Part shown: positions 22,478 through 23,020 of the stretch, in pieces | Numbering within the stretch: position 1 is the first letter of the stretch | Layout: the number at the start of each line of letters is the position of its first letter | Source: a virus | DNA length: 37,642 nucleotides | Reading direction: 5' to 3' (one strand) | Virus genome (UHGV): UHGV-0029174 | The notes under the pieces: generated by a model | The model's input: only the letters and a program-made list of their open reading frames with translations | Told to the model about the DNA's origin: nothing | Databases searched by the model: none | Program-made: the position numbers and the translations under genes

Positions 22478-23020
22478 TCACCCCCGTTTAAAGCTCATCA
22501 CACGCGGCACATACGCATCTTTTGCTTTCGGCTTACGTTTACCTTTCTTCGCTGGCTTTTCTTCTTCCTTCGGCTGTTCTGCCTGATCTAATGCCTTCTC
22601 TACGACTTCAGCCGCCTGCATTGCTGCAACCTCAGCTTCGTTTGATTCAGCCAGGATCGGGAAAAATGCATCAAACATGCGCCCAATCAGGTAGGCATAA
22701 GTCTCGTTTGCCGGGTGGCTGTCATCAGTGGTAGCCAGCACACCGACATCACTTAAGCAGTGAAAGGTGGCGTGGGCCACTTCATGGACCAGCGTACCTA
22801 ACTCATGGTCAAATACAGCAACAACATAGAAGTTACCGCCGCCTTCACCAGTACAGGTTAACGTTAATCCACCAGCAAGCTCGAAGCCGGGATCGATTGG
22901 AATTCCTGCCTTTTCGCAAAATTCATAAAACATCTCGCGGGTCGGGCAAAAGAAAACGGTCGTATGCTCAAAGAGTGGGATCTTGAATTGAGGCAACTTA
23001 ATGCCTTTAGCCTTAGCCAT
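22478..23020 (-). CDS. hypothetical protein with HExxH motif (LVHEVAHATFH) and Lys-rich C-terminal tail; possible zincin-like metallopeptidase
   Basis: SD AGAGGA; HExxH with downstream Glu (NETYAY); K/E/P-rich tail. Confidence 0.5.
   Translation of the reverse strand: MAKAKGIKLPQFKIPLFEHTTVFFCPTREMFYEFCEKAGIPIDPGFELAGGLTLTCTGEGGGNFYVVAVFDHELGTLVHEVAHATFHCLSDVGVLATTDDSHPANETYAYLIGRMFDAFFPILAESNEAEVAAMQAAEVVEKALDQAEQPKEEEKPAKKGKRKPKAKDAYVPRVMSFKRG

Follow-up and report, generated by a model that had tools for sequence, protein, structure and literature searches.

Thermolysin-type gluzincins share a motif in which HExxH is followed, about 19 residues on, by NExxSD, and the archaeal ‘minigluzincins’ are only about 105–110 aa long. 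Small zincin domains are also found in mobile elements, among them the SprT-like/Spartan-Wss1 and MPTase-PolyVal (ArdC C-terminal) domains, and Pfam lists small HExxH phage proteins as PF18894, ‘Putative phage metallopeptidase’. Astacins (M12A), a family that includes the bacterial protease myroilysin, have a domain of ~200 aa that combines the extended motif HEXXHXXGXXH with EXXRXDRD, a Met-turn/SIMHY tyrosine and a lower subdomain (PMC9848320). Here we describe a coliphage gene whose product resembles each of these systems in part. Neither the protein nor its relatives qualified for any of the curated peptidase families against which we ran them.

The gene lies in a 37,642-nt stretch of viral DNA (UHGV-0029174; the window) from an mEp021-like (mEpimmI) temperate coliphage, which has 87–90% nucleotide identity to the mEp021 group of temperate coliphages (PMC11893012). 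As the initial annotation had stated, an ORF of 180 aa plus stop with an ATG start occupies positions 22478..23020, and the ORF listing assigns it to the minus strand; a chance ORF was ruled out because of conservation across the family. A Shine-Dalgarno sequence read from the DNA, AGAGGA (23029–23034, minus), stands 8 nt before the ATG. On this strand a holin–lysozyme–Rz/Rz1 cassette precedes the gene, identified with Pfam as PF16080, PF00959, PF03245 and, for the embedded Rz1, PF06085; downstream, past an array of mini-ORFs, come TerS (21408..21908, minus; PF20901, E = 1.5e−37), an HNH gene (PF13392) and TerL (PF17289). Between Rz and our gene, RNA folding predicted a terminator-like hairpin with a U-run directly after it (23090..23127, minus), ~70–110 nt upstream of the start codon, in a position agreeing with ‘TERM_6’ annotated in mEp021; a simple consensus scan for terminators did not call this hairpin. 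Since a scan between the hairpin and the gene found no promoter-like site, read-through of the late transcript would be the simplest route of expression, and we infer that the gene is expressed in this way. An Rfam search of the window found nothing. In mEp021 the homologue of the encoded protein is gp49; the mEp021-group records call it a ‘hypothetical protein’, and the text of the mEpimmI paper (PMC11893012) held no match for ‘gp49’ or ‘metallo’.

The initial annotation had pointed out a sequence, LVHEVAHATFH, with a Glu about 24 residues downstream, and had read the two as a zincin-like arrangement. Both were recovered. The first spans residues 77–87 and contains HEVAH at residues 79–83 (22772..22786, minus), with two predicted zinc-binding His and the predicted catalytic Glu80, in a protein whose composition gives a chance expectation of 0.02 for an HExxH. 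The distal Glu is E106 (nt 22703–22705), 27 residues past the first His and 23 past the second, so that the ‘about 24’ of the initial annotation is fair. Together with N105 (pair at 22703..22708, minus), it stands at the start of the second long helix and is, by its conservation, the predicted third metal ligand.

This arrangement is maintained over considerable divergence. The profile of PHROG 1365, labelled function unknown, matched the window protein at E = 1.7e−27 (profile positions 3–124 of 127), as it also matched homologues from P22, RSB3 and phCDa and the representatives P0252 and P0268. An exhaustive phmmer search with residues 1–135 against 1.84 billion cluster representatives returned 127 relatives at E ≤ 1e−3, nearly all of them stand-alone proteins of 110–140 aa. 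Alignments of 72, 54 and 127 relatives had mean column identities of 20%, 18% and 15%; the only invariant columns of the 72- and 127-sequence alignments were G51, H79, E80, H83 and E106, to which the 54-sequence alignment added Y110. N105 and G93, and Y110 outside the 54-sequence set, were nearly invariant. HExxH was present in 133/135 family representatives, and the two that lacked it were fragment-like (70 and 105 aa). The Glu followed the second His by 19–20 residues in 113 of 124 representatives, the spacing of 23 in the window protein arising from a three-residue insertion in its lineage, and the family consensus, HExxHxxFxIL, was without the conserved Gly and third His. Judged from these alignments, the pattern is the one expected of a zincin metal site with Glu as the third ligand, and the zincin-like reading is supported by the invariance of H79, E80, H83 and E106 across 127 diverged homologues and from the domain-length match to myroilysin presented below.

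Searches with the single sequence were silent on more distant relationships: the window protein matched no Pfam family even at E ≤ 10 and no PDB sequence. Profile A2, which contains the window sequence, gave only PDB matches at E > 0.2. Profile A5, made from divergent members of the family, matched myroilysin among all PDB sequences at E = 8.6e−5 over profile positions 4–107; its other, sub-threshold matches were all zinc peptidases or N4-type vRNAP. Alignment to the myroilysin fragment with hhalign gave a probability of 95.6% (E = 1.1e−8) for A5 and 75% (E = 2.4e−5) for A2. A whole-family profile found myroilysin more weakly, at E = 0.015, and 9/9 of its matches at E ≤ 10 were zinc peptidases (myroilysin, BMP1/TLL1 and peptidyl-Lys metalloendopeptidase). 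Of the profile and structure-based searches that the initial annotation had proposed, the profile search led to a metallopeptidase, while fold searches with the predicted model did not place the protein among peptidases.

The model and the myroilysin match together delimit a predicted zincin-like catalytic domain at residues 1–125 (22646..23020, minus). AlphaFold2 modelled residues 1–130 with a pLDDT of 89.3 and a pTM of 0.84, in the predicted order of two short strands (b1–b2), a backing helix, two longer strands (b3–b4), the helix 74–91 that contains HExxH, a loop and a long helix from ~103. E106 falls at the start of this last helix, which runs over residues 103–129 in the 1–130 model and 106–148 in the full-length model, where it is followed by a disordered basic tail. 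In the model, such an order of secondary structure agrees with a zincin upper subdomain and, after it, a ‘glutamate helix’.

Comparison with astacins located both the likeness and its limit. The N-terminal catalytic subdomain of myroilysin aligns lengthwise with the phage family, from a K-W-P...V-P-L-Y/F start through the backing helix and strands to the active-site helix with HExxH. Against the ~200 aa of astacins, however, the family domain has ~125 aa, and nothing follows the Glu helix of the window protein except a helical linker and a disordered tail, tail-less relatives being just 110–135 aa long. The window protein (HEVAHATFHCL) is without the Gly and the third His that astacins have at +3 and +6 after the second His, and it also lacks EXXRXDRD, the Met-turn/SIMHY tyrosine, a lower subdomain, a signal peptide and a prodomain; throughout the family, the third His of astacins is replaced by the invariant Glu 19–23 residues downstream. 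Metzincin membership was rejected, the window sequence reading HEVAHATFHCL where metzincins have HEXXHXXGXXH.

The site itself resembles that of thermolysin-type gluzincins, in which HExxH is likewise followed ~20 residues on by an Asn-Glu pair at the start of the next helix, and the very small single-domain scaffold recalls the archaeal minigluzincins. In contrast to both, the window protein is a cytoplasmic phage protein with a basic tail, and no similarity to either group was detected by sequence or fold search. Like the SprT-like/Spartan-Wss1 and MPTase-PolyVal domains, it is a small zincin-like protein of a mobile element. SprT-like (PF10263) matches occurred in 23/72 relatives, weak and below threshold (best E = 4e−4), and the one examined in detail scored 14 bits, where the cut-off is 25.6, and extended over 17 residues at the motif; we rejected SprT-like membership, the window protein being unmatched, the relatives below the gathering threshold and the examined match confined to the motif. 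Third-party database labels name a ‘PolyVal Metallopeptidase superfamily domain’ on two members and a ‘SprT-like family protein’ on one. MPTase-PolyVal was rejected as well, with no Pfam match of the window protein at E ≤ 10 and no place among the 25 of 38 families listed for the 72 relatives, and a literature search on MPTase-PolyVal found no papers. PF18894 proteins share the small size, the HExxH motif, the phage origin and even the genomic junction, but no relation beyond the motif was detected (hhalign probability 1%).

With the metzincin hallmarks absent, the SprT-like matches sub-threshold and the PolyVal names third-party, we therefore describe the protein as a zincin of minimal size whose site is of the gluzincin type, and hold with moderate confidence that it is homologous to the upper subdomain of astacin-like enzymes. 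As read from sequence, it carries a known superfamily signature and an astacin-type match, yet it has no Pfam model and its PHROG is described only as ‘unknown function’. On balance we lean towards a genuine metallohydrolase of minimal zincin type, expressed late and located in the cytoplasm, with zinc endopeptidase as its most likely activity. A gene that is annotated ‘hypothetical’ in hundreds of E. coli prophages thereby acquires a biochemical assignment that can be tested at four specified catalytic residues, and the assignment extends to members in classic phages: epsilon34 gp70, ST64T p49, ST104 ORF47, HK620 hkcC and an unannotated ORF of the P22 reference genome. If active, the protein would be among the smallest zincin scaffolds, with an astacin-like upper subdomain and a gluzincin-type Glu ligand. 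The assignment is useful for annotation; it is mildly interesting for the size of the protein and its position before the terminase genes, and not surprising.

In the mechanism we propose, His79 and His83 on the active-site helix and Glu106 at the start of the next helix would hold the metal in a gluzincin arrangement, with Glu80 as the presumed general base. As in astacin-like enzymes, whose N-terminal subdomain is built in this way, the upper rim of the cleft would consist of the four-stranded sheet and backing helix, with substrate docking along the sheet's edge strand. The usual lower subdomain appears to be reduced to the single long helix, which in the mEp021-like lineage would extend into an acidic linker and then the disordered Lys/Arg-rich tail.

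The acidic helical linker (residues 126–147; 22580..22645, minus), taken from the full-length model, varies in length among relatives, with indels of up to 14 aa (alignment A1). The tail (residues 148–180; 22481..22579, minus) is predicted to be disordered from its pLDDT of about 48–56. Its sequence, EQPKEEEKPAKKGKRKPKAKDAYVPRVMSFKRG, contains 9 K, 3 R, 4 E and 4 P, so that the K/E/P-rich C-terminal tail described by the initial annotation is indeed present; its pI is 10.2, and the protein outside it is acidic. Most relatives have no such tail. In the E. coli lineage and its nearest outgroups (P0115, P0121), an acidic helix of variable length leads to a basic end, and a distant clade with 27–31% identity in the domain (P0169, P0258–P0274) shows the same layout, ending ...KPSKPKGGRRGRS or similar. 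Recurrence of the basic end in two distant clades suggests, from the sequence comparison, that it matters. It might tether the enzyme to DNA or another polyanion, an idea we put forward tentatively. A protease domain joined to a basic region that possibly binds DNA recalls DNA-dependent proteases, by analogy only.

The end of the tail is also of use as nucleotide sequence, for its last codons (AAA CGG GGG; AAACGGGGG or AAACGAGGG) serve the next ORF as Shine-Dalgarno sequence, and the conservation of K-R-G is for this reason partly nucleotide-level; as a conserved C-terminal protein motif K-R-G was rejected, the embedded Shine-Dalgarno accounting for at least part of it. As a separate observation, the N-terminus of TerS (21843–21908, MARTKKAKAEDKKPAAKKTGRP...) and the zincin tail (22481–22579, ...EEEKPAKKGKRKPKAK...) are alike in their Lys/Pro/Ala-rich basic composition, both stretches being too short for a statistical comparison. 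The Sf6-type TerS proteins of related loci carry (K/R)GRP, an AT-hook-like element.

To place the gene in context, we compared 38 mEpimmI-type loci with about 55 loci of other lineages from IMG/VR, GenBank phages and metagenomic contigs. Outside mEpimmI, the next gene often started 2–3 nt past the zincin stop and encoded a TerS of the Terminase_2 or Sf6_terminase family, or a PF18894 protein; the nearest outgroup, with 56% identity and the tail present, had its zincin stop 3 nt from TerS. The embedded Shine-Dalgarno and the 2–3-nt spacer were conserved whether TerS, PF18894 or a mini-ORF came next. One prophage had a GP3_package TerS 197 nt downstream of the zincin gene. In 45 IMG/VR loci of the P0252 type, from lambdoid/P22-like Enterobacterales phages, the zincin gene followed the lysis cassette, and a TerL-sized ORF started 421–2303 nt downstream in 44 of these.

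Other placements were more varied. In the tail-bearing distant clade, TerL came 2.4 kb after the zincin gene, which had two ParB_N and two ABC-ATPase-like genes as neighbours. The copies of P22 and HK620 are found in the immI region, between sieA and mnt, and some P22-like phages have two family copies. Ralstonia phage RSB3 has its family gene after Rz at the right genome end, and in the N4-like phage phCDa the family gene heads an operon divergent from TerL.

Several of these loci showed features of their own. In 12 loci (L057 at 5376–6014, and L059, L062, L071–L077, L079 and L080) a PF18894 gene (E = 1.6e−43) lay within 3 nt of the zincin gene and was followed by TerS, which puts two unrelated putative HExxH metallopeptidases in tandem before the terminase genes. 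At about 3700–7470 in L090–L092, the zincin gene stood between ORFs matching the ABC-transporter/ABC-ATPase PHROGs 293 and 886, and two ParB_N genes preceded the ABC-ATPase-like/zincin cluster; this cluster might represent a module, conserved upstream of TerL, for DNA handling or conflict. The P22 copy (NC_002371.2, about 13849–14226, plus; 2489–2866 in L088) is an intact, unannotated ORF of 121–125 aa that matches PHROG 1365 at E = 7.8e−40, lies between sieA and orf59a/mnt and overlaps the annotated sieA promoter. Its HK620 homologue is hkcC, a name for which a literature search returned unrelated acronyms only.

Because coupling to TerS recurs, one clade has neighbours that handle DNA and basic tails are present, we favour, although only as a possible role, an accessory function late in infection and connected with DNA or packaging. 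The gene sits in the late operon after the lysis cassette and is probably coupled in translation to the gene that follows, TerS in most phages and a mini-ORF in mEpimmI. Our best guess at the substrate would be a protein, of host or phage, that the enzyme encounters during DNA packaging. A more specific version, in which a minimal protease of the packaging module, tethered to DNA through its basic tail, is made with TerS and, ahead of packaging or in its course, clears or processes proteins on phage DNA or the terminase complex in the manner of Spartan/Wss1, seems to us improbable. Coupling to TerS in several unrelated phage types nonetheless raises the question of why a protease should be made alongside the packaging machinery. 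A virion or capsid-targeted protein was rejected: mEp021 gp49 has no virion-protein label in its GenBank record, and mass spectrometry found 16 mEp021 virion proteins (PMC11893012), so that a packaged, capsid-internal role is unlikely.

The main rival reading, drawn from the distribution of the family across genomes, makes the protein an anti-defence or host-takeover effector: a small protease of accessory nature that would cut a host protein, such as a defence sensor responding to terminase, portal or other late proteins, and would have no part in packaging. The patchy, accessory occurrence over several accessory-gene locations would suit such an effector, these locations being the lysis–packaging junction, the immI region of P22/HK620 near sieA and an N4-like operon of small hypothetical genes, as would the two copies in some P22-like phages and the missing virion-protein label of gp49. 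Counter-defence genes are typically early, however, whereas this gene belongs to a late operon in most loci, and its tight translational coupling to TerS in many phages argues in the same direction. A PADLOC search with six family members gave no match, which counts against the effector only insofar as PADLOC models describe defence, not anti-defence, proteins. A literature search for a phage HExxH anti-defence protease returned, by title and abstract, no paper on the PHROG 1365 family. We regard an anti-defence function as unlikely, and retain the late accessory function linked to DNA or packaging as the favoured role.

The peptidase assignment itself has a competitor in which HExxH...E serves another chemistry, as in an aKG-HExxH-like hydroxylase or another hydrolase, or binds a metal for structure only. 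Its attraction lies in the unmatched Pfam peptidase families, the failure of the fold searches to place the model among peptidases and weak motif-level matches to TIGR04267 at E = 0.018–0.25, the NCBIfam library having yielded weak motif-level matches only. The TIGR04267 matches, however, scored only 11–15 bits against the NCBIfam cut-off of 40 and covered 17–29 residues around the motif, on which grounds the aKG-HExxH peptide beta-hydroxylase was rejected. The only domain-length similarity is to a true metallopeptidase, myroilysin, the sub-threshold PDB matches are to zinc peptidases or N4-type vRNAP, and the Glu of HExxH is invariant although a purely structural site would have no need of it. 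These points make a non-peptidase quite unlikely, and we keep to the zinc endopeptidase as the most likely activity.

At the 3′ end of the gene, the initial annotation had seen a stop 2 nt from the start of a first mini-ORF and had suggested co-expression. The TGA stop (22480–22478) is followed by TT and then by the mini-ORF ATG at 22475, with an alternative overlapping GTG start (GTGA) also possible. This first mini-ORF (22401..22475, minus) encodes a hydrophobic peptide of 24 aa, MIDPLIILSACVAVWLAIMIFIES, and the rest of the array consists of five small hydrophobic ORFs in the ORF listing, each with its own Shine-Dalgarno (21919..22389, minus); the array occupies 570 nt up to the next large gene. 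All 38 mEpimmI-type loci had the order Rz, zincin gene, 2–11 hydrophobic mini-ORFs and TerS, and the ATG of the first mini-ORF stood exactly 2 nt past the zincin stop in 37 of them. Successive mini-ORFs were chained by short or overlapping stop–start junctions (loci L001–L042). Across the 38 loci the array peptides came in 135 distinct sequences of ~20–30 aa, with several unrelated types in first position, and the zincin protein was 85–99% identical. Co-expression with the first mini-ORF is thus plausible, because the 2-nt junction and the Shine-Dalgarno in the last codons were kept in 37/38 loci despite the differing first peptide.

A functional bond between peptidase and peptides, which the initial annotation had raised as speculation on an unusual combination, was not supported. 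That annotation had named a failure of the two to co-occur as a refuting outcome, and hydrophobic mini-ORFs followed the zincin gene in all 38 mEpimmI-type loci and in none of about 55 loci outside that lineage. The array is therefore best read, from these loci, as a lineage-specific insertion of hypervariable ORFs into a pre-existing junction between the zincin gene and TerS. An action of the enzyme on the small membrane peptides downstream, whether to mature, cleave or regulate them, is very improbable: the two share an operon, a 2-nt junction in 37/38 loci and constant adjacency within mEpimmI, but the array is missing from other lineages, the 56%-identical outgroup with its basic tail included, the peptides are freely swapped (135 distinct, 2–11 per array) against a well-conserved enzyme, and the enzyme has no signal peptide or membrane segment while each peptide is roughly a single membrane-spanning stretch. 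Our proposed mechanism accordingly treats the enzyme as independent of the mini-ORF peptides, and the hypervariable array, as a separate insertion, deserves study on its own.

Three further observations concern proteins other than the zincin. The family profiles weakly matched (E about 1) an HExxH region in the giant virion RNA polymerases of N4-like phages (PDB 11fw/11go/11gp/9pnr), and this vRNAP region recurred in two profile searches; N4-like vRNAPs may hold a zincin-like module. Within the window, an HNH endonuclease gene between TerS and TerL (20892–21395, minus; PF13392, with a weak AP2-like region) was found at this position in L009 alone among the 38 related loci, a pattern suggestive of mobile, homing-type insertion. 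A 232-aa ORF that immediately precedes the holin gene (24533–25231, minus) has a C-terminal DUF559/restriction-endonuclease-like region (PF04480, E = 3.8e−5); the counterpart region of mEp021 is without an annotated DUF559-type gene, and the ORF is possibly another mobile nuclease.
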